Shown piece by piece: positions 33,811-54,724 of a DNA stretch of 64,000 nt. Position numbers and translations under genes: made by a program. Each line of letters begins with the position of its first letter. Within the stretch, counting starts at the first letter, position 1. The notes under the pieces are model-generated. The model had not been told where the DNA came from. It saw only the letters and a program-made list of their open reading frames with translations, and did not search any database. This stretch comes from Nitrosopumilus sp. (lineage in GTDB: Archaea; Thermoproteota; Nitrososphaeria; Nitrososphaerales; Nitrosopumilaceae): NCBI GenBank assembly GCA_965238275.1, contig OZ250186.1:1-64000 (forward strand). Direction: 5' to 3'.

Positions 33811-34281
33811 CTGTAAAATCCCCCATACGTAACACTAAAGATGGCAACAATACACACAAACTGTCAGCTTTCGGTTTTCTGATCAATATATATCTAATCT
33901 GAGGTGCAGACGCAAGCGGCTAGGTTTACGTCTAATTCCAATGTTGCAGACATCGAACTGAGACAGTTGCGTGGCAGATTGTGAGATACATATGAAAATC
34001 CTGCTCAGAAGGCATGCCAGGTCGCACGGCAGGGCATGTGGCCACCATGTGCAGGTATGGATTGACGATCCCGTCTCCATTCCCCCAGATGGGGTCAGGC
34101 GGGCTGATGCCAAGACAGAGCATGCCAGACACAACAGGAGACACGGCAACTCGTAACGGCCACAAGCAGATTGCAGTTGTCGTATGGAGCCGGAGGGTGT
34201 GGTTTGTATGAAAAAAATTTTTACCTTTTGTCAATAATATTTTTTGTAACTTTAAATAGTGTGAATTTACGCCTTAAATTG

Positions 34282-35115
34282 ATGAAAACTCATCTATCGG
34301 TGTTTGCCTTATCTGCAATTTTAGTTGTGAGTATTGGTATGGCACCAGCATTTGGACAAGTTCAGAGTGCAATTGTGGTTGCCACAGACAAGGAAGCCTA
34401 TATGGGCGGCGAGGTAATCATGATATCAGGCACGGTCAGGGATCAGTTTCCAACAGACGTATCTGTAACAGTGAAGGCACCCAACGGAAACGTTGTGTAT
34501 GTTGACCAGGTACCTGTAGGTTTAGACAGAACTTTCAGCGCCGAGTTTACTGCAAGCGGACTGACTAATAGCAATGGCACATACACAATAACTGTCCAGT
34601 ACACAGACGTTCACTCAGCATCAGCATCATTCGAGTTGACCGATGTCATGGTTGAGGTCGAAGGCGTAACAGTTGGGCCCAGCGAAGGAACGGTTCCGGT
34701 CACAGGCAATGAAGAGCTTTTGGTCGGATACGAGCTTAGCACAGGCGACATACTAAGCATCACGCCCAACCCGGAAGACAGTGCACTGGAAATAGCCATT
34801 GATACAATAGAGGACGGTACGCTGACAATCACCATACCCAGAACGGTGGCAGATGCCAAGAACGCTGACGACACAGACGCCCAATACTTCGTCCTAATTG
34901 ACGGATCCGAGGTGGACGAATTTGAGGAGACAGTAACGGACGAGTCAAGGACGCTTACTATCGAGTTCTATGCAGGAGCCGAGTTGATTGGGATATACGG
35001 CACCTTCGTAATTCCGGAGTTCGGTACGATTGCAGCCATGATTCTGGCAGTTGCAGTAGTGGCCATCATTGCAGTATCTGCAAGGTCAAGACTCAGCATC
35101 ATTCCAAGATACTAG
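34282..35115 (+). CDS. PEFG-CTERM surface protein 1
   Basis: Signal peptide, Ig-like TDK..Y..GE domain, then IPEFG, a membrane helix and a basic tail. Confidence 0.92.
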   Translation: MKTHLSVFALSAILVVSIGMAPAFGQVQSAIVVATDKEAYMGGEVIMISGTVRDQFPTDVSVTVKAPNGNVVYVDQVPVGLDRTFSAEFTASGLTNSNGTYTITVQYTDVHSASASFELTDVMVEVEGVTVGPSEGTVPVTGNEELLVGYELSTGDILSITPNPEDSALEIAIDTIEDGTLTITIPRTVADAKNADDTDAQYFVLIDGSEVDEFEETVTDESRTLTIEFYAGAELIGIYGTFVIPEFGTIAAMILAVAVVAIIAVSARSRLSIIPRY

Positions 35116-35677: not shown

Positions 35678-36520
35678 ATGAATTTCAGACCCTCAACAAG
35701 ATCGGCTGCAGTAGTCATACTGACGCTGTCGCTGATTTCGATGACCTTGGTTCAGCAGAATGCATTTGCCCAAAACGACGGAATGTCCATTTCTGTAATG
35801 GCAGACAACGGAGCAGAATCGTTTACAGTCAATGGCATGACGACTTTAGACACCACGGATGTGACCATCAAGGTAACATCACCAAACCGCAATTTGGTTG
35901 GCGCCGCACAGATTACGCCAGATTCTAATGGAGAGTTTGCAGAAGAATTCAGAATCGGTCCTTCATGGAATGAGGACGGATTCTATAAGATTCTCGTCAC
36001 GCAAAAATCCCCGACGTACGAACTGGACACAGTCATCGAGATAAGAGACGGAGTGGCGCTGAAGACGCTGGAAAACGAGTCCAACATAGTACCCCTGTTT
36101 GAACCAGGCATGATCGATACAATGCCGGCCGGGATAACACTCAGCGCAGAGGCAGATGTCGGATCCACTGAGATCGTGATTACGGGAACAACTGACAGGC
36201 TAAGTCAGGACGTTTCCCTGACAGTCACTGCGCCAAACGGAAACGTGGTTACAGCTGATCAGGCATCGCCCACACTGGACGGAAAGTTCAGTGCGATGCT
36301 GATTACCGGCGGACCGTTATGGACACAGGATGGCATGTACACAGTAACAGCACAACAGTTCAATGACGAAGCATACACTGACACAGTCATGGTGGATATC
36401 CTAGACGGAGTCATAGTGCCTGAGTTTGGTACCATTGCAGCCATGATCCTGGCAGTCTCGATAGTGGCCATCATTGCAGTATCTGCAAGGTCAAGACTCA
36501 GCATCATTTCAAGATACTGA
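35678..36520 (+). CDS. PEFG-CTERM surface protein 2
   Basis: Signal peptide, two similar Ig-like repeats (V..PN.N.V, W..DG.Y) and a VPEFG tail. Confidence 0.92.
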   Translation: MNFRPSTRSAAVVILTLSLISMTLVQQNAFAQNDGMSISVMADNGAESFTVNGMTTLDTTDVTIKVTSPNRNLVGAAQITPDSNGEFAEEFRIGPSWNEDGFYKILVTQKSPTYELDTVIEIRDGVALKTLENESNIVPLFEPGMIDTMPAGITLSAEADVGSTEIVITGTTDRLSQDVSLTVTAPNGNVVTADQASPTLDGKFSAMLITGGPLWTQDGMYTVTAQQFNDEAYTDTVMVDILDGVIVPEFGTIAAMILAVSIVAIIAVSARSRLSIISRY

Positions 36521-36544: not shown

Positions 36545-36930
36545 AGTATTGGCCAGCTGGATGCTGCCACACCGCAGGGCATACTACGGGTTGATGGATC
36601 CGCCTTCGGCCCATCAGGCGTAAGCAGAGACCACAAGTAACGCTCTTGCTGGCACAATGCCACTTCAAGCAACATGATGCCATCAAGAGACGCGGTGAGC
36701 CGACAGAGATTCCATCATGCCTCAAAAGGAATGGGATAAAGGCCAACCCCGGAGGGAACCGCAGCTGCATCAGAAAGGACAATGGAGTACAGTCCATTCT
36801 GGCGGCGTACTCGACACATGGCGTCTGTAAGTTCGATGTCTGCAGCATTGTGGAATTAGACGTGAGCCTAACCGCCTGCCATAATTTCCCTTTAAATACA
36901 TAAATAGGGATAACAGTATCGCAAAATAAG

Positions 36931-37782
36931 ATGAACAGCCGCACACCATTTATGCTATTAGCGATTTTAGCTGTAGTTGGTACCTTAACCATATCATCGG
37001 CATATGCCCAAGAAGGCTCACAGGCATGTGTAGATTGTGAAGAGGATCTAAACGAGGCCATACTGATAGTCAACACGGCAGTATCAATCCATACAGACAA
37101 GACAGAGTACGACACAGGTGACATTATACAGGTATATGGCGGGGTAGCAAACATATCTCCGGATTTCGAGATCACGGTCCAAGTCAAAAACCCGCTCAAT
37201 TCCGTAGTCGGTGTTGCACAGCTTAAGGTGGCAGAGGATGCTACATATGAGACATCATTCAACACAGCAGGCAGTATATGGCAGTATGAAGGGACATACA
37301 CCATCGACGTATACTACGGAAGCGAGGTAAAGAACAACAGTGTACGGATTGAACTGGGAGGAGACAGTATGATGATGGAAGTAGAGGACTGTTCTGCTGA
37401 AGAGGTGATGATTGTCGGGTATTGTATGACAGGCAGCATCTCCGGCGGAGCCATAACAGACTCTTCTATCAATCAGGAGGACAATTCCATCATAATCAAC
37501 ATCGATGCAGAAGAAGACGGAACACTGATGCTAGTCATCCCAAATGAAGTTCAGGAAGGCATATTCCTGATATCTGTTGATGGAGAAGAGTGGGATGATG
37601 TCAGCATAGACGACGGCAGCATAACAGTCGAGTTCTTGGCAGGCGCAGAGATGATTGAGATATTTGGATCCCACGTAATTCCAGAGTTTGGTACGATTGC
37701 AGGCATGGTTCTAGCAGTGGCAGTAGTTGCCATAATTGCAGTATCTGCAAGGTCAAAACTCAGTATCATGCCAAAATACTAA
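36931..37782 (+). CDS. PEFG-CTERM surface protein 3
   Basis: Signal peptide, acidic Ig-like domains and an IPEFG tail. Confidence 0.92.
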   Translation: MNSRTPFMLLAILAVVGTLTISSAYAQEGSQACVDCEEDLNEAILIVNTAVSIHTDKTEYDTGDIIQVYGGVANISPDFEITVQVKNPLNSVVGVAQLKVAEDATYETSFNTAGSIWQYEGTYTIDVYYGSEVKNNSVRIELGGDSMMMEVEDCSAEEVMIVGYCMTGSISGGAITDSSINQEDNSIIINIDAEEDGTLMLVIPNEVQEGIFLISVDGEEWDDVSIDDGSITVEFLAGAEMIEIFGSHVIPEFGTIAGMVLAVAVVAIIAVSARSKLSIMPKY

Positions 37783-46106: not shown

Positions 46107-47886
46107 GTAACAGTTTCGCTTTTTGAAGTGGCCTGCCTAACAGTGGAGCGGGTGCAGCCTTTCCCTTACCGTGAAATCTTTTTTCCCGTGATGCACCGCG
46201 CGTGTCGTAAGACGATGCCTCAACTGTCTCCAGAGGACGAGTGGACCAAGTGATTAAAGAAGCTGTTTCCGCTGATCCTGTCAGTTGCCAGCAGCGTGAA
46301 CAGGATCGAGTTGGCATCCATGCCCTTCTGGGAGCGGTTTCCGCCCCCGTCGCTCCTTATGGCCACGAACCTCCGGTTGACCCTCTCCACTGCGTTGTTG
46401 TCAGGCTCGATGCCGTCCACGTGCAGGCAGGTGGTCATAAAGTATCCCTCCCGGGGGTTCCTCTTCTTGTGTCTGGCGATGGTGCCGTGCCCATCGTCTG
46501 CAAACGGTTCGTTCATCAGCCCGCGCAGCTCCGCGTCTATGCAGTGGGCCGCGACGATCCTCGTGTGCCCGTCTTTGATCCTGGATGCGCGATAAATCTT
46601 ATCGTGGATTGCCGACAGCCTGTCCAGAAACTTTGGAACGTCACCTTTGGGGTTGGTCAGGACGTCCTTTTGCACCAGGCGTTCCTGATGCCACACGCAC
46701 ATCTGGCGGCACGATCCCACGTGGAGCCATCCTGCATACGAGTCCTGCGTTATGGTTCCGCCGTAGTCCGGGAGTGTGTGGCAAAGCGTCTTGATGTCCC
46801 GAGAGCCGGTCACCTCCACGAGGCAGGCGTCTTTTGCCAGGGCCACTATCCCGTAGCCGCGTTTGCCGCCCAACGGCCAGTGGAATTCGTCTGCGTTCAG
46901 GTGTGGCGCCTCTAACACGCGCTTTCTTACAGAATCACGCTCCGGTGCCATGCGCTCTGCCTGCCTGATCTTGCCGCGGTATGCAGACGGGCGCGAGATT
47001 TTGTGCCCCCACGCGTCACTGCCAAATTCTGCGGCCCTGGCATGCGACAAACCGTTCATGTTCAGGGACGTCATGGCCGCATCAAAGTTTGATGAACGGC
47101 GCGCGTGTTTTGCCACGCCGGGAACCCTTCCAGAGACCTGTTTTTTGCACCCGCGGCACCAGCGCCGCTTGATGACGTACCTGACGTTTTCCAGTATGAC
47201 GCGCATGACAGTCACGATGCGATCGTACCTGTCAGTCACGTCCGAAAGATTGTCGTTGCCACAGTCGGGACATTCCTTGCAGTCGATCTCCTCGACGCGG
47301 TCGACGCGTTTTGGCCTGCAGTTGATGGTGGGTTTTTGCCCCTTGGGCCTGCCGGCCTTCCTTGGGCCTGCCTTTTTCTTGGCCACGGTGGGGATGTTGA
47401 TCCTGTTGGCCTTGGCGTTAAGCTCCCTGTTGGCCTTGGCGTACCTCTTGTTGTCCTCTGTGAGGGATGAGACGAGTGCCTGCAGTCCCTCGATCTCCTT
47501 GCAGCCGGTACATGGTCTGCCTGCAACTTCGGCAGCAGCAGCAGCAGCAGCCTTCGGGATCTTGCCTGCCAAACCGATCGTATCGCCAAGCACCCTTGCC
47601 CAGAACCGGCAGCACCTGCATCCTGATTTCATGCACGCCCCTGCATCCGGTGGGATTTGTGGTAAGGGCAAGGAGGGCTCGTGCGTTGCCTTAAATTCTT
47701 CCACCTCCAAGCATGTCTGGCGTGCCGATTCCTTCATTTGCAATTCTCGAAGGGATTGGCACCCACTCATATTTGGATCGCGACGGCCTAACTTTGTCGT
47801 CCCGAGCACGAAATCATTAGATTCATTCCCGGCACCATGGATGTCCGCTAGGCCATCGGGGGCACTTCAAAAAGCGAAACAATTAC
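46107..47886 (-). mobile_element. Complete single-ORF IS66-family insertion sequence (1780 bp)
   Basis: 24-bp terminal inverted repeats GTAA(CA/TT)GTTTCGCTTTTTGAAGTG. Perfect 8-bp target duplication TAACCTAG at 46099-46106 and 47887-47894. Confidence 0.95.
46220..47809 (-). CDS. IS66 family transposase (TnpC-like)
   Basis: Coiled coil, GRPKGQK, CPDCG zinc finger, ADE, QD.Y, QMCVWH and PDNNAVER. Start may be ATG 47770. Confidence 0.92.
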   Translation of the reverse strand: MLGTTKLGRRDPNMSGCQSLRELQMKESARQTCLEVEEFKATHEPSLPLPQIPPDAGACMKSGCRCCRFWARVLGDTIGLAGKIPKAAAAAAAEVAGRPCTGCKEIEGLQALVSSLTEDNKRYAKANRELNAKANRINIPTVAKKKAGPRKAGRPKGQKPTINCRPKRVDRVEEIDCKECPDCGNDNLSDVTDRYDRIVTVMRVILENVRYVIKRRWCRGCKKQVSGRVPGVAKHARRSSNFDAAMTSLNMNGLSHARAAEFGSDAWGHKISRPSAYRGKIRQAERMAPERDSVRKRVLEAPHLNADEFHWPLGGKRGYGIVALAKDACLVEVTGSRDIKTLCHTLPDYGGTITQDSYAGWLHVGSCRQMCVWHQERLVQKDVLTNPKGDVPKFLDRLSAIHDKIYRASRIKDGHTRIVAAHCIDAELRGLMNEPFADDGHGTIARHKKRNPREGYFMTTCLHVDGIEPDNNAVERVNRRFVAIRSDGGGNRSQKGMDANSILFTLLATDRISGNSFFNHLVHSSSGDS

Positions 47887-48110
47887 TAACCTAGGGCGTA
47901 TTTGCCCGCCGGCATGTCCTGAGTCCCACCCCATGAATCTACATGCGGCGCAGGCATCATTCCTCCCGACAGACCCAGTGCAGTCTCTTCCCCCCCCCCG
48001 TGTCTGCTCCCCTTCGGTCATGGGTGTGGGACACGGCATGTCTAGAAACGGTGCAAGGGCCAGGCAGGCGTCATGCAGAATAATCGTTCACGCGCAGAAG
48101 GCTGCCTGAT

Positions 48111-49118
48111 TTACAGCCTAGATCTTACCTTCTTGTGAATAGTAAATCCCACCATCGCAGGTGCTGCAACATACATGGCCAGATTCAGCGCAATCACAGA
48201 TATGCCCAGTCCCAGCACTTGGGCCTCAGAGCCGCCGTCGGCAAGAGTCATGATTGACAGCGTGGAGACCATCGGAGTGATAAACGCCCGAACCGCATCC
48301 CGGAAGAGCGGGTTCTCTCTTTCCAAGTCAGCTATGGTTGGCGAGAAGGAATAGTACAACTGGTTGAAACCCGCCATGAATGATGCGCCAGAGGCAGTAC
48401 CCATCACGGTGTTATCCCTTATCTCCCTCAGGATCTGAACCTGTGGTGCAAGTTCGGTGCCGTACGCTGCAGTCGCAATCAGGCATCCGCCGGGAGGATC
48501 ATCATCTGGAATTTTTTCACAGACTCCATCTACAAGTTGAGTGCCGGTTCCGCATATGTTCTCTGGTGGTGGTGGGGGTGGTGGGGGAGGTGGAGGTGGG
48601 GGAGGTGGCGGAGTTGGTTCTGGGTCTGGGTCAGTCACAGGCGGGGGTGCAACCACTGGTGGCTCTGGCGGGGGTGCAACCACTGGTGGCTCTGGCGGGG
48701 GTGCAACCTTTGTTGGGGGAGGTGGCTGGTCGGATGCAGAGTATGCAATTGTCGCCTCACCGGCAGCTGCGCGGCCAAATGTTACCAAAATTTGATAATC
48801 GCCACTCTTCCATTTGTCGCCTTGTGCGACAAGGCGGTCTGTAAAGGTGCCGTCAGATTCCAGCTCGGTCTGCGCAATATGTACAAGATTATTGGTGTCG
48901 ACGTTCCTTATCTGAATGGTAATAGCATCGCCTCTATCATTGTCACTATCTTTAATGGAACCGCTAATTACAATCGTATCACCTGTACCGTACCCAGACG
49001 AGTCGGTGGTGACTGTCAGAGGCGGGATGTCGTGTTCGTCAGCAAGCACTCCCACGGGGATACCGTATGAAAGTATCGACACGGCCAACAATACAACGAA
49101 AAACATGCCGGACTTCAT
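48111..49118 (-). CDS. CFI-box-CTERM surface protein with proline-rich linker
   Basis: Signal peptide, Ig-like domain, poly-Pro, CGTGTQLVDGVC, GGCLIATAAYGTELAPQVQILREIRD and a membrane helix. Confidence 0.92.
   Translation of the reverse strand: MKSGMFFVVLLAVSILSYGIPVGVLADEHDIPPLTVTTDSSGYGTGDTIVISGSIKDSDNDRGDAITIQIRNVDTNNLVHIAQTELESDGTFTDRLVAQGDKWKSGDYQILVTFGRAAAGEATIAYSASDQPPPPTKVAPPPEPPVVAPPPEPPVVAPPPVTDPDPEPTPPPPPPPPPPPPPPPPENICGTGTQLVDGVCEKIPDDDPPGGCLIATAAYGTELAPQVQILREIRDNTVMGTASGASFMAGFNQLYYSFSPTIADLERENPLFRDAVRAFITPMVSTLSIMTLADGGSEAQVLGLGISVIALNLAMYVAAPAMVGFTIHKKVRSRL
48640..48708 (-). repeat. 27-bp coding tandem repeat, 2.5 copies (VAPPPEPPV)
   Basis: GGCGGGGGTGCAACCACTGGTGGCTCT repeated exactly. 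Confidence 0.9.
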
Positions 49119-49173
49119 CTTGGAATTACTGACGCTACGAGGTTATTTATGTATTTAATGGGTCGGTTCACGC

Positions 49174-50229
49174 TGTATTGTAACGAAATTATGTCCGCCC
49201 CCCTTTGGTGGCTGTTTATCCATGGACATCCGCCTCCATCCAGTTTGGGTTGGTAGCTCTTGTGGATTCGTCTGCTGCCTTGTCATGGAACGCCTTGAGA
49301 GGCGTCTGGCAATTATCTATGTCAAGTGACCAGTGCAATCGTCTCTCGTTGTAGAATGTGATGAAATCTTCCAAGCTGTCGTGCCGTCCTACCTCGTCCT
49401 CAATGGTTCGGTGGAACCGCTCTAGCTTGCCGTTGGTCTGGGGGTGGTATGGCCTGGAGTTGATTAGGTGTATGTCAAGATCCAACAGCTCGTTTTCAAA
49501 GATGGTGGGTCTCCAGGATCCCTTTGGCGTGCCCCTTCGAACTCCCACAAAACACGAACCGTTATCGGACAGGATGGATGACGGGACGCCAAATGCTTGG
49601 ACGGCCTGCCTGAGCACCTGCACGGCGTTCTGGCCGGTAGCCTCATCAAACAGGCCAAACCCTGTCACGCATCTTGAGGCGTCGTCCAAGTACGTGATCA
49701 GGTTCAGATCCTTCATGCGGTAGTCTTTCATCACGTGCCAGTCCGTGTGCCACATGGAGTTTGAGTGAAGGCGTTCGTACCTTACCCACTTGCGTTTCTT
49801 TGATTTGGTGGGGCACGGTTCCACCAACCCGTGTTCCTTCATCACCTTGTATACGGTCCGCCCGCTTATGTTTTGATGCCTCAGTGCCTTGGCAACACGT
49901 CCCACACCAGCACCCTCGTTCCCATACGCATCCAGCACCCGCCTGACATCCTCATCGGATATCTTGGCAGCTGGTCTGCCTGCGCTCTTGATGACAGGTA
50001 ATGATCCTGTCGCCTCGTACAGGGACCAGAGGCGGCGCACATGACGGGTGCTTATCCCCACACCGTCTGCTATCTTTGTGTTGGATGTCCCTTTCTTCTT
50101 CTCGCGGATGACGTACTTGATTTTGGCATCATCAAGTTTGGTCGGCATTGGTCGTCCTGATCGGTGCAGCCTAATGAAGTCATGCAGGGTGCGTCGAAGA
50201 ATAGGTGGACATAATTTCGTTACAATACA
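49174..50229 (-). mobile_element. IS481-family element A (1056 bp)
   Basis: 26-bp terminal inverted repeats TGTATTGTAACGAAATTATGTCC(G/A)CC. 15-bp target duplication TGGGTCGGTTCACGC. Confidence 0.95.
49216..50148 (-). CDS. IS481 family DDE transposase A
   Basis: HTH, WHTD, SDNGSCF and PYHPQTNGKLERFH. Confidence 0.94.
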   Translation of the reverse strand: MPTKLDDAKIKYVIREKKKGTSNTKIADGVGISTRHVRRLWSLYEATGSLPVIKSAGRPAAKISDEDVRRVLDAYGNEGAGVGRVAKALRHQNISGRTVYKVMKEHGLVEPCPTKSKKRKWVRYERLHSNSMWHTDWHVMKDYRMKDLNLITYLDDASRCVTGFGLFDEATGQNAVQVLRQAVQAFGVPSSILSDNGSCFVGVRRGTPKGSWRPTIFENELLDLDIHLINSRPYHPQTNGKLERFHRTIEDEVGRHDSLEDFITFYNERRLHWSLDIDNCQTPLKAFHDKAADESTRATNPNWMEADVHG

Positions 50230-50246
50230 TGGGTCGGTTCACGCCC

Positions 50247-51320
50247 TCTATTGTACCGAAATTAGGTCGTCCTAATTTTAGACGTACTGCAAAGGAATAC
50301 TTTGTCCTTTATCGGTCAAGAAAACCGTTGATAAAACGCCTGACTGCAAAGACAATCAGATACGCAGTCACACAGTGCAGGAAAGGCCAAAAGACGTCCC
50401 AGATTGCCAAAGAGATAGGAGTCTCACAAAGGCACGTTCAGCGACTGTACGCCCGGTTCTGCAGGACAGAATCCCACCACGTTCCAATGCCAGCGGGAAG
50501 AAAGCCCATACGGGCCACCGAAGACGAGATACGGCGGGTTCTGGACATGCACGCACGGGAACCGGTAGGCGTGCTGCGCACGGTAGGAAATCTCAAAACA
50601 GACTGCGATATAAGCTACAGACGGGCATACAGGATCATGAAAGAGCATGGTTTGGTAACGCCCTCGGCTGCAAAGTCAAAGAAGAGAAAGTGGGTCCGTT
50701 TTGAGAGGAAATACTCGAACGCAATGTGGCATGTGGACTGGCACGTCATGAAGGATCCGCGCTTCAGGGGCCTCAACCTGATAACGTACCTGGATGACTC
50801 ATCCAGATGCATAGCAGCAGCACAGATGTTCACCGAGGCCACCTCTGAGAACGCGGTGGCCGTGCTGCGAAAGGCGATCGAGACGTTTGGAACACCTGCC
50901 ACCATACTGTCTGACAACGGCTCATGCTTTGTAGGCGCGGCAGGCAGGCACAAGAAAGGAAAAGATGGCCGGAGAAGGAAGGCAGCTGCAGGATCATGGC
51001 AGCCCACCGCCTTTGAGGCCGAGCTGCTGGACCGCGGAATTGAACTGATAAACACCCGGCCGTACCATCCACAGACCAACGGAAAGCTGGAGCGGTTCCA
51101 CCGCAGCATAGAGGAAGAGATTTACCATTACGAGTCGCTGTCCGACTATGTCCAATACTATAATGAGCGAAGGCTGCACTTTTCACTTGACATGGCAAAC
51201 CGTGAGACACCGCTCAGAGCGTTTTCCGCAAGAAAGGCCACAGATGAGATCAGAAAAGACAACCCCCAATGGATGGAGGTAGACACTGATGAGTAGGCGA
51301 CATTATTTCGGTATACTACA
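50247..51320 (+). mobile_element. IS481-family element B (1074 bp)
   Basis: Imperfect terminal inverted repeats (TCTATTGTACCGAAATTAGGTCG / TGTAGTATACCGAAATAATGTCG). 15-bp target duplication GGTCGGTTCACGCCC. Confidence 0.92.
50328..51296 (+). CDS. IS481 family DDE transposase B
   Basis: HTH, WHVD, SDNGSCF and PYHPQTNGKLERFH. TTG start inferred inside the element. Confidence 0.93.
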   Translation: MIKRLTAKTIRYAVTQCRKGQKTSQIAKEIGVSQRHVQRLYARFCRTESHHVPMPAGRKPIRATEDEIRRVLDMHAREPVGVLRTVGNLKTDCDISYRRAYRIMKEHGLVTPSAAKSKKRKWVRFERKYSNAMWHVDWHVMKDPRFRGLNLITYLDDSSRCIAAAQMFTEATSENAVAVLRKAIETFGTPATILSDNGSCFVGAAGRHKKGKDGRRRKAAAGSWQPTAFEAELLDRGIELINTRPYHPQTNGKLERFHRSIEEEIYHYESLSDYVQYYNERRLHFSLDMANRETPLRAFSARKATDEIRKDNPQWMEVDTDE

Positions 51321-51586
51321 GGTCGGTTCACGCCCGGATCCGTGCCTGAAAATTGACCAGAACACGTATCTGTTCATACCGTTACAAGCTGAATCGTAGT
51401 GCTCTAAAACCACCCCATTGAAGAATCCTAGCACGTGCGAGAAGACCAGAAAGACATGGGTTGGGCGTGTTCAAATTGGGACGAGCCCACATTGGCCGTA
51501 GTCATGTGGGATTACCGGTTTTGAAGGATGCGGGCCGGTCCTGCCGGCTGCATCAGGCAGGAGATGCCGGCTGCATGAGGGACAGA

Positions 51587-54500
51587 TCATATCCGGATTA
51601 TGCCGTTTCTAATCATATACTGGACTGACTGCACAAACTCCTCGTCAGATATCTGGCCGCCTGCCCACAGCCCGGCAGTGTGTCTGACCCAGTCAGGAAC
51701 AACAGTCTCTGATGCTCCGGTGCCAGGTTCGTCAATAATTCCCATGGCAATCATGTGTCGTACCCCGTCAACAAACCCGTCGTGGGATGAGGCCCCCGAT
51801 GACCAGCCTAAGACGCCGTCTCGTACCCAGTCCGGAATCACGTCAGATATTACGGAAAGCAGCAGGGTTCCAACATCATCGCCCCCATACGAGAGGCTGA
51901 TGGTGTACTGTCCTGACAGTGAATTTGTAGTCACGGTGATGACTGAGCGGTAGTTTCCGTTCTCGGTCGTGGGTATTCTAAAGGTATCAACTGTCTTGTC
52001 AGGATTTGTGACCGTTATGGACAGGGGTGCGCCGCCATTGCTGCCTCCGACGCTTCCGGACATGACCACCTTGTAGACTGAATTTCCATCCTGCAGCGAT
52101 ACGCGGTCATGGCTCAGCATCGGAGGAACCGGAATAGAGTCCGGACGTGCGGCGGCGGGAGGAACCGGAGTGGCGGATGCCGGCGGCCGATCCAGACTAA
52201 AGATGTTTTGGTTTCCAGAGGCGTCCTGTGAGTCGTGGTATATGAGGTCAATGCTGCCTCCGCCAGGAGATATCAGTTTTGAACCGGTCTTGTCGCATAT
52301 CCAAGAGGGCATCGCAAAGGAGCCCTCAAAGACTCCCGTGCTGGGGCCTGTCTCGGACAGGACAAATCCGGTGGATGCCAGTCCTCCATGCTCCACACCA
52401 TCCACCATGCAACGCTGGTAGCGGACGTTCTTGATCTTGACTTCCAACAGGGTGTGACCGTTTAGCCCGACCGTATCCACGCCGGGCGAGGCAGGATCAT
52501 CAATGACACGGTATGCATCCCTTCGGTCACTGGATGTGTTCAGATCAGGATCCACCAGCCTGACTGTAACAGGGTGGCCAAACCTCAAGGATTGTGGCGA
52601 ATAGGAGACTTCTCCGTTGTGCGTCTGTATGCCAACCTCCGAGGACAGTATCGTTATCTCCACCAGGGCCAGATCAGAGTAGTTGATGACAATCCTGTCA
52701 TTTCCGGATACGGCAAGCACCACGTCGCTGCCGGTCGGAACTATCCTGTCTGCGATTTTGGCACCCAGTCCGGCAGGATCTGCAATCACGTATTCAAGGG
52801 AACCGCCAAAGCTGCCGGGATTATTCCGGTCCTCTTCCAGCTCCATCCTATACACGGCATTGCCGATTACATCGTTCCTGACAACTCCAAATGAAAAAAA
52901 GTCCAGAACTATAGGTTGGCTGGAGGACGCAGGGGTAATCCTGCCGCCGGCAGACGGACCAAGATCAATTACGGCAAAGACGGCATCACCACCACCACTC
53001 CTTGAGGAGATCTGCTGTATCACAGAAGGGTCGATCAGGAGAAGCTGCTGCGGTGATGACATGTCCCCCGGACTTACCACGGGTATGGGGCTTGTATCCG
53101 AAAGGCTTCCGAAGGACAGACTGATGCCGGTGTTTGAAAAGTCACCAACGCCCAGTTCTTCAAGCGATCTCAGGTCAAGGTTTATCCAGCTGGAGCCGTC
53201 CTCGGATACGGCCAGCAGGCTGTTTAGCGAATCAGCAGAGAATCCAAGATTTACAGATATCTTTTCAAACTCACGTATTGCATTTGGGGCATCCAGGTAA
53301 AGCCGGGCAGAGAACGGATCAGGGACAGATGATGGAACCGCGTCTCCCCCGACAACGGGGGCGCTGCTGGATTCATACAGTCTGAGATTGCCGGCATTCT
53401 CAAGGGTCAGCGGCGAGCCAGTCTTTATGGTGGGAATGGCGGCAGATGCCCGGGATACCAGAAGATCGTCGCTGGCAGCGGTACTGAGATTCTGGTCAGA
53501 GTCGATCAAAAGTACTGGTATCTTGGTTCCAGGCCTTGACTCCCCGACCTCTATGGTAATAGGAGGCTTGGTGGAAAGCAAGGCAGTGGATGAGCCGGTC
53601 AGCACAGAGATGGTATCGTCATTGTATTGGATGTATCCTGGATGGCCTCTGGGCGCAGTATCGGACACGCCCAGGTTTGAGATCTTGTCCCGGTCATAGT
53701 TGACAAACATGCCGGAGTTGGGCTTGTCTTCTACAAGCGTAATGATATCAGGGGATGCAAAGACTGATGGCTGAATCCCATTGGGTTTGAACTCCAGTAT
53801 CCTTCCGGGATCAATCTCCATGAATCCATTGTCCTCAAATCCCAGCCTTTTCAGGGAAGGATAGAGATCTTTCGGGTCGTCGGCAGCGCTGCCGCCCCTC
53901 CGGTCAAAGGCATGATAGAATACCATTGGGGACGAGTCGACCTGGAAGGTCCACGAGTCCCAGTCGGTAGGATCCTGGTTCAGCTGGATGTCAGAGACGA
54001 ATACAAACACCTCGGAGCCTGCCGGATGCAGCTCCCTGTCAACCTCAGCTGTGATGCCGGGAATCTCGTCGTACCGCAGGGTCACCTGCTGCTGGCTGCC
54101 TGCCGGCTCGTACCGTATGGTTACATCTTTTGAAAATGAGAACAGCTGTATGACCGGCCATGCATCAGGGTCTAGGCCGGTCTGGCCGGTAGGAACATTA
54201 TCATTCTGGTTTATTGCAGGAGGCCTGCGCACCACGTTAATATCGTTTGAGCCGGTAGGAGGCCCGGTGCACTTGGAGGTAATGGAGCCGGTTGTAGAGC
54301 CAAGCCCGCCTGAACTGGGCACAAAGAATCCTTCAGAGTCAGAAAAGGATACCCCAAACACGTCACTGTCAGTGGAACTGCTACAGAGCACCCCGAAATC
54401 CAGGCCTGTCCCTGCACTCTCAATAGGCACAGTCCGGTCTGCTGCCATCGCGCCTTGTGTGTTTGCAAAATACGCATGCCAGGCCCCGTTGGATGCCTGC

Positions 54501-54724
54501 GTCATCTGCAGCCTGTCGCCGTTGACAGTCACGTTGGGCACCACTTCAGGCTCACTGGTCCCATGCAGGTTTGGGTCAGACACAACCACCTCGACTACCA
54601 TGGATCCGGCAAAATGATTATCAAATGCAGGATTCTCAGCAGAGACTGACAGGTATGGATTCGAGTCCGCATACGCGTCTGCAACAAACGGCACAAGCAA
54701 CAGAACCGCAAGGTACGCCCACAT
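51587..54724 (-). CDS. Large secreted S-layer-protein-like paralog with C-terminal (I/V)PDWVR repeats
   Basis: Signal peptide. LSVSAEN..F.N...G..VVEVVV.D and ETGPSTGVFEG motifs resemble thaumarchaeal S-layer proteins. Two PDWVR repeats. Confidence 0.8.
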   Translation of the reverse strand: MWAYLAVLLLVPFVADAYADSNPYLSVSAENPAFDNHFAGSMVVEVVVSDPNLHGTSEPEVVPNVTVNGDRLQMTQASNGAWHAYFANTQGAMAADRTVPIESAGTGLDFGVLCSSSTDSDVFGVSFSDSEGFFVPSSGGLGSTTGSITSKCTGPPTGSNDINVVRRPPAINQNDNVPTGQTGLDPDAWPVIQLFSFSKDVTIRYEPAGSQQQVTLRYDEIPGITAEVDRELHPAGSEVFVFVSDIQLNQDPTDWDSWTFQVDSSPMVFYHAFDRRGGSAADDPKDLYPSLKRLGFEDNGFMEIDPGRILEFKPNGIQPSVFASPDIITLVEDKPNSGMFVNYDRDKISNLGVSDTAPRGHPGYIQYNDDTISVLTGSSTALLSTKPPITIEVGESRPGTKIPVLLIDSDQNLSTAASDDLLVSRASAAIPTIKTGSPLTLENAGNLRLYESSSAPVVGGDAVPSSVPDPFSARLYLDAPNAIREFEKISVNLGFSADSLNSLLAVSEDGSSWINLDLRSLEELGVGDFSNTGISLSFGSLSDTSPIPVVSPGDMSSPQQLLLIDPSVIQQISSRSGGGDAVFAVIDLGPSAGGRITPASSSQPIVLDFFSFGVVRNDVIGNAVYRMELEEDRNNPGSFGGSLEYVIADPAGLGAKIADRIVPTGSDVVLAVSGNDRIVINYSDLALVEITILSSEVGIQTHNGEVSYSPQSLRFGHPVTVRLVDPDLNTSSDRRDAYRVIDDPASPGVDTVGLNGHTLLEVKIKNVRYQRCMVDGVEHGGLASTGFVLSETGPSTGVFEGSFAMPSWICDKTGSKLISPGGGSIDLIYHDSQDASGNQNIFSLDRPPASATPVPPAAARPDSIPVPPMLSHDRVSLQDGNSVYKVVMSGSVGGSNGGAPLSITVTNPDKTVDTFRIPTTENGNYRSVITVTTNSLSGQYTISLSYGGDDVGTLLLSVISDVIPDWVRDGVLGWSSGASSHDGFVDGVRHMIAMGIIDEPGTGASETVVPDWVRHTAGLWAGGQISDEEFVQSVQYMIRNGIIRI

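Follow-up and report, generated by a model that had tools for sequence, protein, structure and literature searches.

In the 64,000-nucleotide stretch of DNA analysed here (the window), from a marine archaeon that oxidises ammonia, two different IS481-like insertion sequences, A and B, are stacked at one 17-bp site. Our preferred explanation, held with moderate confidence, is that the second element landed on the flank beside the tip of the first, and that such tip-abutting insertion is recurrent in this clade and independent of the target sequence. The features of the region are as follows.

48111-49118, minus strand: putative surface protein gene, 335 aa, intact (open reading frame list; orthologue in the congeneric genome G017, 71% DNA identity)
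49139-49160, minus strand: TATA-like motif, GAGGTTATTTATGTATTTAATG on the plus strand (22 nt conserved in G017)
49159-49173, no strand: outer 15-bp target duplication of element A, TGGGTCGGTTCACGC (sequence)
49174-50229, minus strand: element A1, IS481-like insertion sequence, 1056 bp (ends and duplications)
49216-50148, minus strand: A transposase, 310 aa, N-terminal HTH and rve DDE core (Pfam rve, 5.4e-14, and rve_3)
50230-50246, no strand: 17-nt spacer between A and B, equal to the original empty site TGGGTCGGTTCACGCCC (empty-site contigs join through the same sequence)
50247-51320, plus strand: element B1, IS481-like insertion sequence, 1074 bp (ends and duplications)
about 50328-51296, plus strand: B transposase, about 322 aa from a TTG start (Pfam, NCBIfam, alignment with A)
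51321-51335, no strand: outer 15-bp target duplication of element B, GGTCGGTTCACGCCC (sequence)
51587-54724, minus strand: putative surface protein gene on the other side, 1045 aa, intact (open reading frame list; orthologue in G017)

The anatomy suggested by the first-pass annotation, two IS481 elements at one 17-bp site with 15-bp duplications offset by 2 nt, matches the coordinates and sequences, and the opposite orientations of A (minus) and B (plus) agree with the strands of both the elements and their transposases. The inner copy of TGGGTCGGTTCACGC occupies positions 50230-50244, the left copy of GGTCGGTTCACGCCC occupies positions 50232-50246, and both duplications are exact. The terminal inverted repeats of A are 26 nt long (49174-49199 and 50204-50229, TGTATTGTAACGAAATTATGTCC...) with complementarity of 96%, while the ends of B, TCTATTGTACCGAAATTAGGTCG and TGTAGTATACCGAAATAATGTCG (the latter given as the reverse complement), are imperfect inverted repeats matching at 15 of 20 nt. 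Both ends of A begin with TGT, and those of B begin with TCT on the left and with TGT on the right; TGT is also the start of the IS3 and IS481 ends (bioRxiv 10.1101/2022.12.17.520857). The 13-nt core occurs three times in the 2,216,668-bp genome, even if one mismatch is allowed, and all three places belong to this array (array 1). Hence the array is more than a chance arrangement.

The A and B transposases are 54% identical, and both contain the Pfam domains rve, rve_3 and HTH_21/23/28/29. The start of the B protein is placed, by alignment with A, at a probable TTG codon at about position 50328; the listed start of this open reading frame, 50205, was rejected, as it falls within element A. Residues D136, D195 and E243 are invariant in the alignment of six paralogous transposase families, and their position suggests a catalytic role. 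The top NCBIfam match of both proteins is IS481 (NF033577), ahead of the runner-up families (86 and 73 bits) by more than 100 bits, but the scores, 195 bits for A and 188 bits for B, are lower than the curated cutoff of 224. Thus the earlier assignment to IS481-type DDE elements is retained in the form "IS481-like". A and B are independently mobile, intact IS481-like insertion sequences, each with one HTH and rve DDE transposase and terminal inverted repeats of about 24 nt starting with T(G/C)T. Among the 120 transposase relatives listed of 821 found, one bore a name, plain "transposase".

The 335-aa protein is hydrophobic at both termini and rich in proline between them, which suggests a surface protein, with no family found in the Pfam scan; for the 1045-aa protein Pfam yields a weak MG2 match only, below the cutoff. 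The TATA-like motif, a candidate promoter element, extends right up to the first repeat copy and shares the initial 2 nt of that copy. The orthologous IS-free intergenic region of G017 keeps the same 22 nt, and the similarity ends directly after TTTAATG. The sequence, the open reading frames and the comparison with G017 all agree with the initial observation that the array lies just in front of the TATA-like motif and does not disrupt the surface-protein gene. A comparable TATA-like motif is seen upstream of a paralogue near 36.9 kb.

The empty site TGGGTCGGTTCACGCCC, initially a reconstruction, is real, being present in contigs of all four public runs examined. In each run, one contig links 49160 to 51321, so that exactly 2160 bp (1056 + 1074 + 15 + 15) are absent, and the flanks of the X3 and X4 contigs show no differences. 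In G017, the two neighbouring genes are adjacent with no IS between them. At this site, the contig pieces listed for the four runs show the empty allele only: array 1 itself was not seen, nor was an allele with A only or B only, although contigs cannot exclude one. No circle junction is present among the loose ends listed, contigs being prone to drop rare forms.

Both elements have other copies elsewhere in the genome. The A copies (A2 and A3 whole, A4 in two pieces, A5 a 291-nt piece) are 96-99.9% identical over the aligned part, and the B copies are 100% (B2) or 99.9% (B3 and B4 each) identical. The duplications of A2, A3, B2, B3 and B4, which are ATCCGGAACAATGTT, CGTCTGCAAAATCAG, CTCTCAGCACCTTCT, CTGACGGTGTTGGGG and CTTTCAAGCGGTTCC, respectively, are unrelated. 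Since different 15-mers flank other copies, the 15-mers are, as had been assumed, true target duplications and not the element ends. Ten further copies from four sister families in the same genome also have unrelated duplications. The duplication length is 15 bp for A, B, E, F and C2 and 16 bp for subfamily D, and the C1 flanks also match over 16 nt. The range reported for the IS481 family is 2-15 bp (PMC10045372, in the part available), in agreement with the earlier remark that 15 bp is at its upper end, and the 16 bp of subfamily D just exceeds it. A4 has no matching duplication, and the own duplication of E2 matches at 13 of 15 nt.

From other Nitrosopumilaceae 79 loci were fetched, 68 of them at least 8 kb long. 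Thirty of these 68 have no clean ends by the criteria we applied and were excluded from the counts; the other 38 have clean inverted repeats and an exact duplication, of 15 bp (n=23), 16 bp (n=11), 14 bp (n=3) or 17 bp (n=1). The duplications of these 38 insertions, again, are unrelated in sequence. No target consensus emerges across 34 sites, with no position exceeding 0.35 bit. There is a weak symmetric preference for T outside each cut: at positions -5 to -2 it is the base in 45-50% of half-sites (background 30%). The GC content is 48% in the duplications and 38% in the flanks. Thus the proposal of a site-specific archaeal IS481 subgroup is not supported, given the unrelated duplications, the absence of a consensus in the 34 sites and the occurrence of other arrays on unrelated sequences (below); that the other A and B copies lie in unrelated flanks and yield no consensus is the very outcome named in the first-pass annotation as refuting it. 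The analogy with casposon and CRISPR-style integration fails as well, as there is no shared target, and the resident tip, not the 17-mer, appears to be the common factor. At the level of annotation, a 15-mer in three copies around two elements does not indicate an attachment site.

Arrays of the same shape do recur, as had been expected, in this genome and in other Nitrosopumilaceae. A scan for 12-mers occurring exactly three times identified three IS arrays in this genome (arrays 1 to 3, at positions 49161, 690109 and 1567915) with unrelated targets. One more triple 12-mer, at 35075, 36480 and 37742 in the window, was rejected: it stems from a C-terminal tail conserved among three paralogous genes for surface proteins and is not an IS array. 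Seven further junctions of two IS481-like ends were found in other Nitrosopumilaceae genomes, ten junctions in total. For the family scan, we applied the pattern rc(IR)-N{1,31}-IR to 401 genomes, permitting spacers of 1-31 bp. It was found at eight places in seven genomes, with spacers of 13, 14, 15, 15, 15, 15, 16 and 17 bp, and the reversed pattern, used as a control over the same 401 genomes, had no matches. The IUPAC pattern misses the junction of array 1, since the left end of B is outside the pattern; array 1 and locus L050, both with a spacer of 17 bp, were found by other routes. Hence the spacers are 13-17 bp in all ten junctions, eight of which come from a scan permitting 1-31 bp. Outside this genome the junctions are rare, seen by the pattern scan in six of the 400 other genomes sampled.

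All ten junctions pair two different elements, in the IRL-IRL (one), IRR-IRL (five) or IRR-IRR (four) orientation, and six of the ten are full triple repeats. Both elements have exact duplications in arrays 1 and 3, L044, L098 and L104, while in L012, L035, L099 and L050 the spacer is the duplication of only one of the two elements. Among the triple-repeat candidates in the 79 loci from other genomes, L044 is the sole real one; L039 was rejected as an AT-rich chance match and L087 as a tandem 785-bp duplication. Comparison of flanks among the fetched loci, in search of abutment to other repeats, gave a few one-sided matches (L014, L029, L030, L059), none of which could be confirmed as an element tip. 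By our arithmetic, about 45 IS481-like tips, 5 positions and 18 insertions in 2.2 Mb yield some 0.002 junctions expected by chance, compared to three observed. No paper describing the IS481-type elements of the Nitrosopumilaceae or their tip-abutting arrays was found in open-access text.

If the duplication of a newcomer holds tip nucleotides of the resident, the resident came first. This is the case for six insertions, the number of such nucleotides being 1-7. The duplication of D3 includes 1 nt of F2, that of A2 includes 1 nt of E2 (the order here is by parsimony), that of the IS in L104 includes 2 nt of a 234-bp MITE, those of E2 and F2 include 3 nt each of a short element, R, and that of E3 includes 7 nt of K, an IS4/IS5-type element. 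The newcomer window is offset from the resident tip by -7 to +2 nt, and in three cases (R twice, K once) the resident belongs to an unrelated family. E2 and F2 occupy the same position relative to R at two unrelated loci, and in arrays 2 and 3 the R-proximal element was inserted first. Six of 19 insertions sit at tips.

R itself is 61 bp long, with terminal inverted repeats matching at 13 of 16 nt, IS66-like termini and 8-bp duplications. The repeats and the duplications fit a MITE, which is how we read it, and, with no Rfam match for R, it was rejected as a recombination site or an RNA. Out of 101 genomes of the genus it is found in one, namely this genome. An apparent IS tip 15 bp from R at 2146283 was not counted: the element there is of the IS66 family, with an 8-bp duplication, and its tip is 23 bp away. 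Four of the 19 IS481-like copies are nested within other repeats, and there is a three-element cluster at 687-693 kb.

The following scheme may account for array 1. The first insertion, of A or B in either order, would have occurred in an ordinary intergenic site by the promoter-like AT-rich motif. The second element would then have taken as its 15-nt window the flank adjoining the first element, at a distance of 2 nt from the tip, so that nearly the same 15 nt were duplicated again, giving the repeat-IS-repeat-IS-repeat structure, in which the spacer is roughly as long as one duplication. In this clade the cuts in the target are staggered by 15 nt, or by 16 nt in one subfamily, and neither A nor B recognises the 17-mer. 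The recurrence on unrelated targets and the absence of a consensus indicate that the common factor is apparently the resident tip. We infer from the end-state sequences that the tip itself may attract the incoming transposition complex. The attracting feature could be a transposase sitting on the inverted repeat of the resident, by analogy with IR-targeting in IS30 and IS911, or the bending or nicking of element tips by transposases. Junctions of two different elements are presumably the only ones to persist, since like-end junctions would be reactive and short-lived. The scatter of offsets, -7 to +2 nt, counts against a strict molecular ruler.

The partners being all different and some residents (R, R and K) being unrelated, simple recognition of related inverted repeats is also disfavoured. 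A broader and more tentative reading, which we regard as possible but doubtful, is that this archaeal IS481-like clade lands on resident tips of any family via structure, a nick or a bound protein, the 15-nt stagger being set against the tip and recognition needing no sequence. If so, it would be a family-independent route to safe havens, forming element nests in compact genomes and sparing genes.

The strongest alternative, in our opinion rather unlikely, is a structural hot spot that is used again, with the resident playing no part. The hot spot would be a GC-richer 15-nt core with T-rich or TATA-like flanks, where bound promoter factors might bend the DNA; after the first insertion, one window copy would still adjoin the favoured outer flank and be hit by a second element. 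The symmetric T preference outside the cuts, the GC-richer duplications and the TATA-like motif abutted by array 1 are consistent with that, and in the xrs arrays formed by IS1202-family elements successive insertions are described as driven by a fixed external site (bioRxiv 10.1101/2022.12.17.520857, in the part available). Moreover, in arrays 2 and 3, L044 and possibly L098 the two windows share exactly the boundary on the AT-rich outer flank, which re-use of a favoured flank explains equally well, and it is on the resident side, not on the flank side, that the 16-nt window of D3 is extended. However, the preference is far too weak for a second hit to be likely: summed over 55 positions it amounts to a few bits before correction, and the approximately 2 bits left, by our estimate, after small-sample correction correspond to the order of 10^5 equally good sites. 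Apart from R, which adjoins arrays 2 and 3, no common motif links the outer flanks of the six arrays, and on the flank side the two windows are displaced by 2 nt in both array 1 and L104. Finally, the identical placement of E2 and F2 by R at unrelated loci and the insertion of E3 on the tip of K point to the resident.

That the junctions arose by rearrangement (one-ended or cointegrate-type events, recombination between copies) or by an assembly error, and not by simple insertions, seems improbable. The duplications of only one partner in L012, L035, L099 and L050, the absent duplication of A4, the 13 of 15 nt in E2 and the sole presence of the empty allele in the four runs could be accounted for in this way. 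On the other hand, exact 15-nt duplications of both elements in array 1 are the signature of two simple insertions, and the same holds for exact duplications of both partners in array 3, L044, L098 and L104. The E2-A2 junction of array 2 was recovered independently as a loose end in run X4, and offset duplications are not something that an assembler would be expected to generate.

Still less probable is neutral accumulation, with random insertions surviving in harmless places beside or inside mobile elements. The genome is compact and IS-rich, and selection would explain the nested copies and the 687-693 kb cluster, but not the spacers of 13-17 bp when 1-31 bp were permitted, nor the offsets within a few nucleotides of the tip; by our arithmetic, even with all intergenic and IS DNA (about 370 kb) treated as neutral, the tip windows comprise less than 1% of it, yet contain 6 of 19 insertions. 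The model of the first-pass annotation, in which the 17-mer or its consensus is a specific attachment site regenerated at each insertion, is almost certainly wrong: although the windows of A and B overlap within a single 17-mer and are indeed retained on both sides after duplication, the 13-nt core is found nowhere else in the genome, the duplications of the five A and B copies, the ten sister-family copies and the 38 insertions elsewhere are unrelated, none of the 34 sites' positions exceeds 0.35 bit, and the other arrays lie on unrelated sequences.

The harm done by a mobile element depends on its choice of target. For a 2.2-Mb genome with almost no non-coding space, insertion at a resident tip, as in the explanation we prefer, is nearly harmless, and it would explain how these symbiont-type archaea carry so many insertion sequences. 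Targeting of inverted repeats has been worked out for a few bacterial elements, with duplications of 2-3 bp; an archaeal, 15-bp, cross-family version would widen this picture and provide a way to test how targets are measured by the long-stagger transposases of IS481 and IS1202.

Among known systems, the closest by family are ISMac4 and ISA0963-1, archaeal members of the IS481 family, and IS481EU, elements of parabasalids (PMC10045372). All have an IS481-related DDE (rve) transposase and duplications of 15 or 15-16 bp, similar to the present elements; the TGT...ACA termini are shared by the A/B-type elements and IS481EU, for which they are stated, and the archaeal hosts by ISMac4 and ISA0963-1 (PMC10045372, in the part available). 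Tip-abutting arrays are not mentioned for these three in the available part of the same source (PMC10045372). Unlike the IS481 equivalogs, the transposases considered here score below the NCBI cutoff; the comparison with ISMac4 and ISA0963-1 is by description only.

IS30 inserts beside its own inverted repeats, producing unstable IR-IR junctions, and has been likened in this respect to the targeted transposition of IS911 (PMC9333248, in the part available). As in IS30, the newcomer lies beside a terminal inverted repeat of the resident and the spacer equals the duplication length, 2 bp for IS30 and about 15 bp here (PMC9333248). At that, IS30 uses its own inverted repeats in the IRL-IRR arrangement only (PMC9333248), while here the elements are different, the orientations are mixed (1, 5 and 4), some residents are unrelated, and the newcomers carry full duplications.

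The ISAba32 subgroup of the IS1202 family, whose transposases are distantly related to those of IS481, forms tandem arrays with the same direct repeat between elements, including arrays of two different IS, ISAba54 and ISAju2 (bioRxiv 10.1101/2022.12.17.520857, in the part available). Its insertion at XerCD sites (xrs) one direct-repeat length from a fixed feature and its same-repeat arrays resemble the present case, but the anchor is a host recombination site, the insertion is oriented and the repeats are 5-6 bp (bioRxiv 10.1101/2022.12.17.520857). Here, unlike the xrs arrays, there is no shared external site, the orientation is mixed, the repeats are 15-16 bp and a tip of another mobile element seems to serve as the anchor; moreover, the order of insertion in arrays 2 and 3 is the reverse of the one in the xrs model. 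IS4321 and IS5075 of the IS1111 family insert into the terminal repeats of Tn21-type transposons; they are sequence-specific, have a transposase of a different type and are not known to create a duplication. Thus they, too, target the end of another mobile element, whereas in the arrays described here the tips are many and unrelated, and 15 nt are duplicated.

Array 1 consists of two insertion sequences separated by the 17-mer TGGGTCGGTTCACGCCC:

49174-50229, element A, 1056 bp; terminal inverted repeats of 26 nt, 96% complementary; TGGGTCGGTTCACGC at both flanks; 310-aa transposase on the minus strand
50247-51320, element B, 1074 bp; imperfect inverted repeats; GGTCGGTTCACGCCC at both flanks; transposase on the plus strand, start placed by alignment with A

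The layout of elements, repeats and strands was checked on the sequence and is correct as described in the first-pass annotation, which was also right about the IS481 identity, the duplication length and the empty site. The ORF listed for B begins at 50205, within A, and hence the real start was put at TTG 50328. In B and in the sister family D, the transposase frame runs open through the left inverted repeat and on into the flank (window 50205-50330; locus L005 549-640), and read-through from outside could lengthen both proteins; the true starts would lie at a TTG or ATG, roughly 80 nt within the element. Both array 1 transposases contain rve, rve_3 and HTH domains, and they are 54% identical. 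The best NCBIfam family is IS481 (195 bits for A and 188 for B, curated cutoff 224), outscoring the next family by more than 100 bits. Since it scores best by far, yet under the curated cutoff, we call the elements "IS481-like".

Four public sequencing runs, all represented by assembled contigs, were compared over 48600-51900. In each of them one contig joins 49160 to 51321, skipping exactly 2160 bp, and 13 letters at the joint fit both sides. The flanks are identical to the window in X3 (3145-bp contig) and X4 (2613-bp contig) and have 7 and 14 differences in X1, while the X6 contig is just 185 bp. As the 31-mer running from the left flank through the 17-mer into the right flank is absent from the array allele, these contigs reflect real empty-site DNA. 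Among the listed pieces of the four runs, no joint skips a single element and no piece spans the A–B junction, absence not being demonstrable from contigs. Loose ends in the runs include the E2–A2 junction of array 2 (see below) and several flanks foreign to this genome. Over window 49174-51322, loose ends of X1, X4 and X6 at the tips of A and B run into flanks absent from this genome. Thus A and B are polymorphic in nature, occupying other sites in related populations, and hence transposition is recent and ongoing. In the congeneric genome G017, both neighbouring genes are adjacent (71–73% identity) with no IS in between; the motif GAGGTTATTTATGTATTTAATG is kept, and the similarity ends directly after it. 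The remark that the insertions lie by a TATA-like box and leave the gene intact is therefore reasonable, the promoter being putative.

The source genome is a single contig of 2,216,668 bp (52.7% GC), of which the window forms the initial 64 kb, and where the 13-nt repeat core is found only at the three places of array 1, even with one mismatch tolerated. Further copies of A and B have the following duplications:

690124-691179, A2, ATCCGGAACAATGTT
1349065-1350080, A3, CGTCTGCAAAATCAG
129122-130195, B2, CTCTCAGCACCTTCT
1079227-1080300, B3, CTGACGGTGTTGGGG
687169-689691, B4, CTTTCAAGCGGTTCC

These duplications are unrelated; A4 lacks one, and A5 is a fragment. The sister families C, D, E and F, four in number, have related ends and transposases 37–60% identical to that of A. 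Their duplications are of 15 bp, 16 bp in family D, and one copy of C, C1, likewise has a 16-nt match. As the copies carry differing duplications, the 15-mers are true target duplications on unrelated targets. The proposed site-specific, self-regenerating attachment site is thereby refuted by copies in unrelated flanks, the very observation that the first-pass annotation had named as contradicting it.

Searching public genomes yielded 575 encoded relatives. The 79 loci retained come only from MAGs of Nitrosopumilaceae, Nitrosopumilus and Cenarchaeum, except one record labelled just 'Thaumarchaeota archaeon'. Recognisable inverted repeats with an exact duplication were seen in 38 of the 68 loci of at least 8 kb, the duplication being 15 bp (23 loci), 16 bp (11), 14 bp (three) or 17 bp (one); the 30 loci failing the criteria for ends or duplication were excluded from these counts. 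Duplications of 15 bp are already on record for the IS481 family: PMC10045372 gives 2–15 bp, mostly 6 bp, for the family, 15 bp for the archaeal ISMac4 and ISA0963-1, and 15–16 bp for IS481EU elements. When tabulated, 34 sites whose 15-nt duplications are exact show no target consensus, every position having at most 0.35 bit. Half-sites folded on each other (29 sites, those abutting another IS excluded) show, before any multiple-comparison correction, a weak bias towards T two to five positions beyond each cut (-5 to -2; 45–50% vs 30% background) and a GC content of 48% in the duplications and 38% in the flanks. We estimate that about 2 bits are left after small-sample correction, not nearly enough for one site to become a recurrent target.

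The genome was scanned for 12-mers occurring exactly three times at IS-like spacings. Three IS arrays emerged, array 1 being that of the window:

Array 2: AACATTGTTCCGGAT, A2, AACATTGTTCCGGA, E2 (691194-692627), AACATTGTTCCGGTA
Array 3: TGCTGCGATCACCAT, F2 (1567930-1570787), TGCTGCGATCACCAT, D3, A+TGCTGCGATCACCAT

The 16-nt duplication of D3 includes the terminal A of F2, where the original site has T, hence F2 was resident before D3. The first T of E2 forms part of A2's 15-nt duplication; if E2 was inserted before A2, a single 1-nt deletion suffices, and the reverse order takes further steps, so that parsimony, which is not proof, favours the former. Array 2 belongs to an IS nest (locus L001, genome 687169-692627), in which B4 is split by E1 and, after 432 bp, A2 and E2 follow end to end, then the repeat R, with a tRNA gene 0.3 kb beyond it. 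The window itself contains an IS66-family element (Pfam DDE_Tnp_IS66) at about 46107-47889, ORF 46220-47809 on the minus strand, 0.3 kb from a surface-protein gene; it has about 14 genome copies at 93–99% identity, one of them nested within F2.

Such k-mer scans also produce a false array-like signal, as the shared 3' ends of three paralogous genes (window 34171-35115, 35678-36520 and 36931-37782, all on the plus strand) mimic an IS triple repeat. Their nearly identical C-terminal hydrophobic tails end in ...IAVSARSRLSIIPRY and are candidate archaeal sorting signals reminiscent of PEFG-CTERM. The scan is dominated by a pair of very long coding regions with internal repeats (genome ~897000-904000 and 1255000-1269000), presumably encoding giant surface proteins.

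The common outer flank of arrays 2 and 3 is the 61-bp repeat R, present in 8 copies:

window 33915-33971, plus strand
window 36820-36879, minus strand
genome 692640, 987899, 1006371, 1008855, 1567867 and 2146280

With terminal inverted repeats matching in 13 of 16 nt, 8-bp flanking duplications (e.g. TGCCGGAT) and ends similar to those of the genome's IS66-family elements, R is a MITE-like repeat. Among 100 further genomes from the genus, none had a copy, and Rfam gave no match. In the window, two paralogous surface-protein genes lie between the two R copies, which are inverted relative to each other. E2 and F2 occupy an identical position, the 15-nt duplication ending, with the boundary as we call it, 3 nt inside the same R tip. 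E3's duplication takes in 7 nt of the tip of K, an element of 1355 bp that encodes a DDE_Tnp_1 (IS4/IS5-type) transposase and whose 14 copies (genome 1903114-1904470, locus L118, and 13 further places) are 98.5–100% identical; K is probably the genome's most active element. E1 is nested in B4, and B2, C2 and F1 in other repeats. In total, the 19 IS481-like copies examined yield six insertion events at tips and four nested ones. By our arithmetic, granting up to 300 tips × 10 positions, chance would give about 0.03 tip events; with IS481-like tips only, the expectation is about 0.002, against three seen.

The 79 loci were screened by the triple-repeat scan, for two transposases (two hits in 16 loci), and by a weight-matrix scan for ends (174 end-like matches, two facing pairs at most 60 bp apart). 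These routes gave junctions at L044 (perfect triple GAGATCTTGACTCGT), L012 (17-nt spacer), L035 (15) and L050 (17). An IUPAC pattern, reverse-complemented end - N{1,31} - end, applied to 401 genomes of the family, matched 8 places in seven genomes, and the reversed-pattern control none. All eight spacers are within 13–17 nt, with 1–31 permitted: 14 and 15 in this genome, 15 at L044, L035 and L099, 16 at L098, 17 at L012 and 13 at L104. The array 1 junction was missed because the left end of B is outside the pattern. L098 is an additional full triple, and L104 is a triple with a 234-bp MITE as the resident, the duplication of the newcomer, CATGCCAAGTGCACG, including the final two nucleotides of the MITE; at L012, L035, L099 and L050 the spacer is the duplication of one partner only. 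There are ten distinct junctions (spacers 13, 14, 15, 15, 15, 15, 16, 17, 17, 17), each between two different elements, in the orientations IRR-IRL (five), IRR-IRR (four) and IRL-IRL (one).

Hence array 1 is one instance of recurrent tip-abutting insertion by archaeal IS481-like elements, a behaviour for which we found no published description in open-access text. In the end state, the 15-nt window of the newcomer lies -7 to +2 nt from the resident tip, and the spacer is therefore about one duplication length. This geometry would follow from standard DDE chemistry. One strand transfer would hit the bond cleaved by the resident's own transposase, or one close to it, and the other would fall some 15 nt further out, on the strand bearing the resident's 5' end. 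The main rival explanation is re-use of a favoured flank, supported by the AT-rich-side window boundaries shared in arrays 2, 3 and L044 and with the TATA-like motif at array 1; however, the low information content of the target sites and the R and K tip cases weaken it. We favour tip-directed target capture, signalled possibly either by cross-binding to the inverted repeat or by a tip that is bent or nicked. Like-with-like junctions are absent, perhaps since active IR–IR junctions are unstable.

Such instability is described for IS30 in PMC9333248, which also compares IR-targeting to the targeted transposition of IS911. Like the elements considered here, IS30 inserts beside a resident inverted repeat; its own spacer is 2 bp (same source). 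A further parallel is provided by the xrs arrays of the IS1202 family, with a 5-bp repeat and including two different IS with the same repeat between them; the circle junction spacer in that family equals the direct-repeat length (bioRxiv 10.1101/2022.12.17.520857). Unlike both IS30 and the IS1202 arrays, the arrays described here share no external site, the orientation is free, and the partners are different elements, even of unrelated families.
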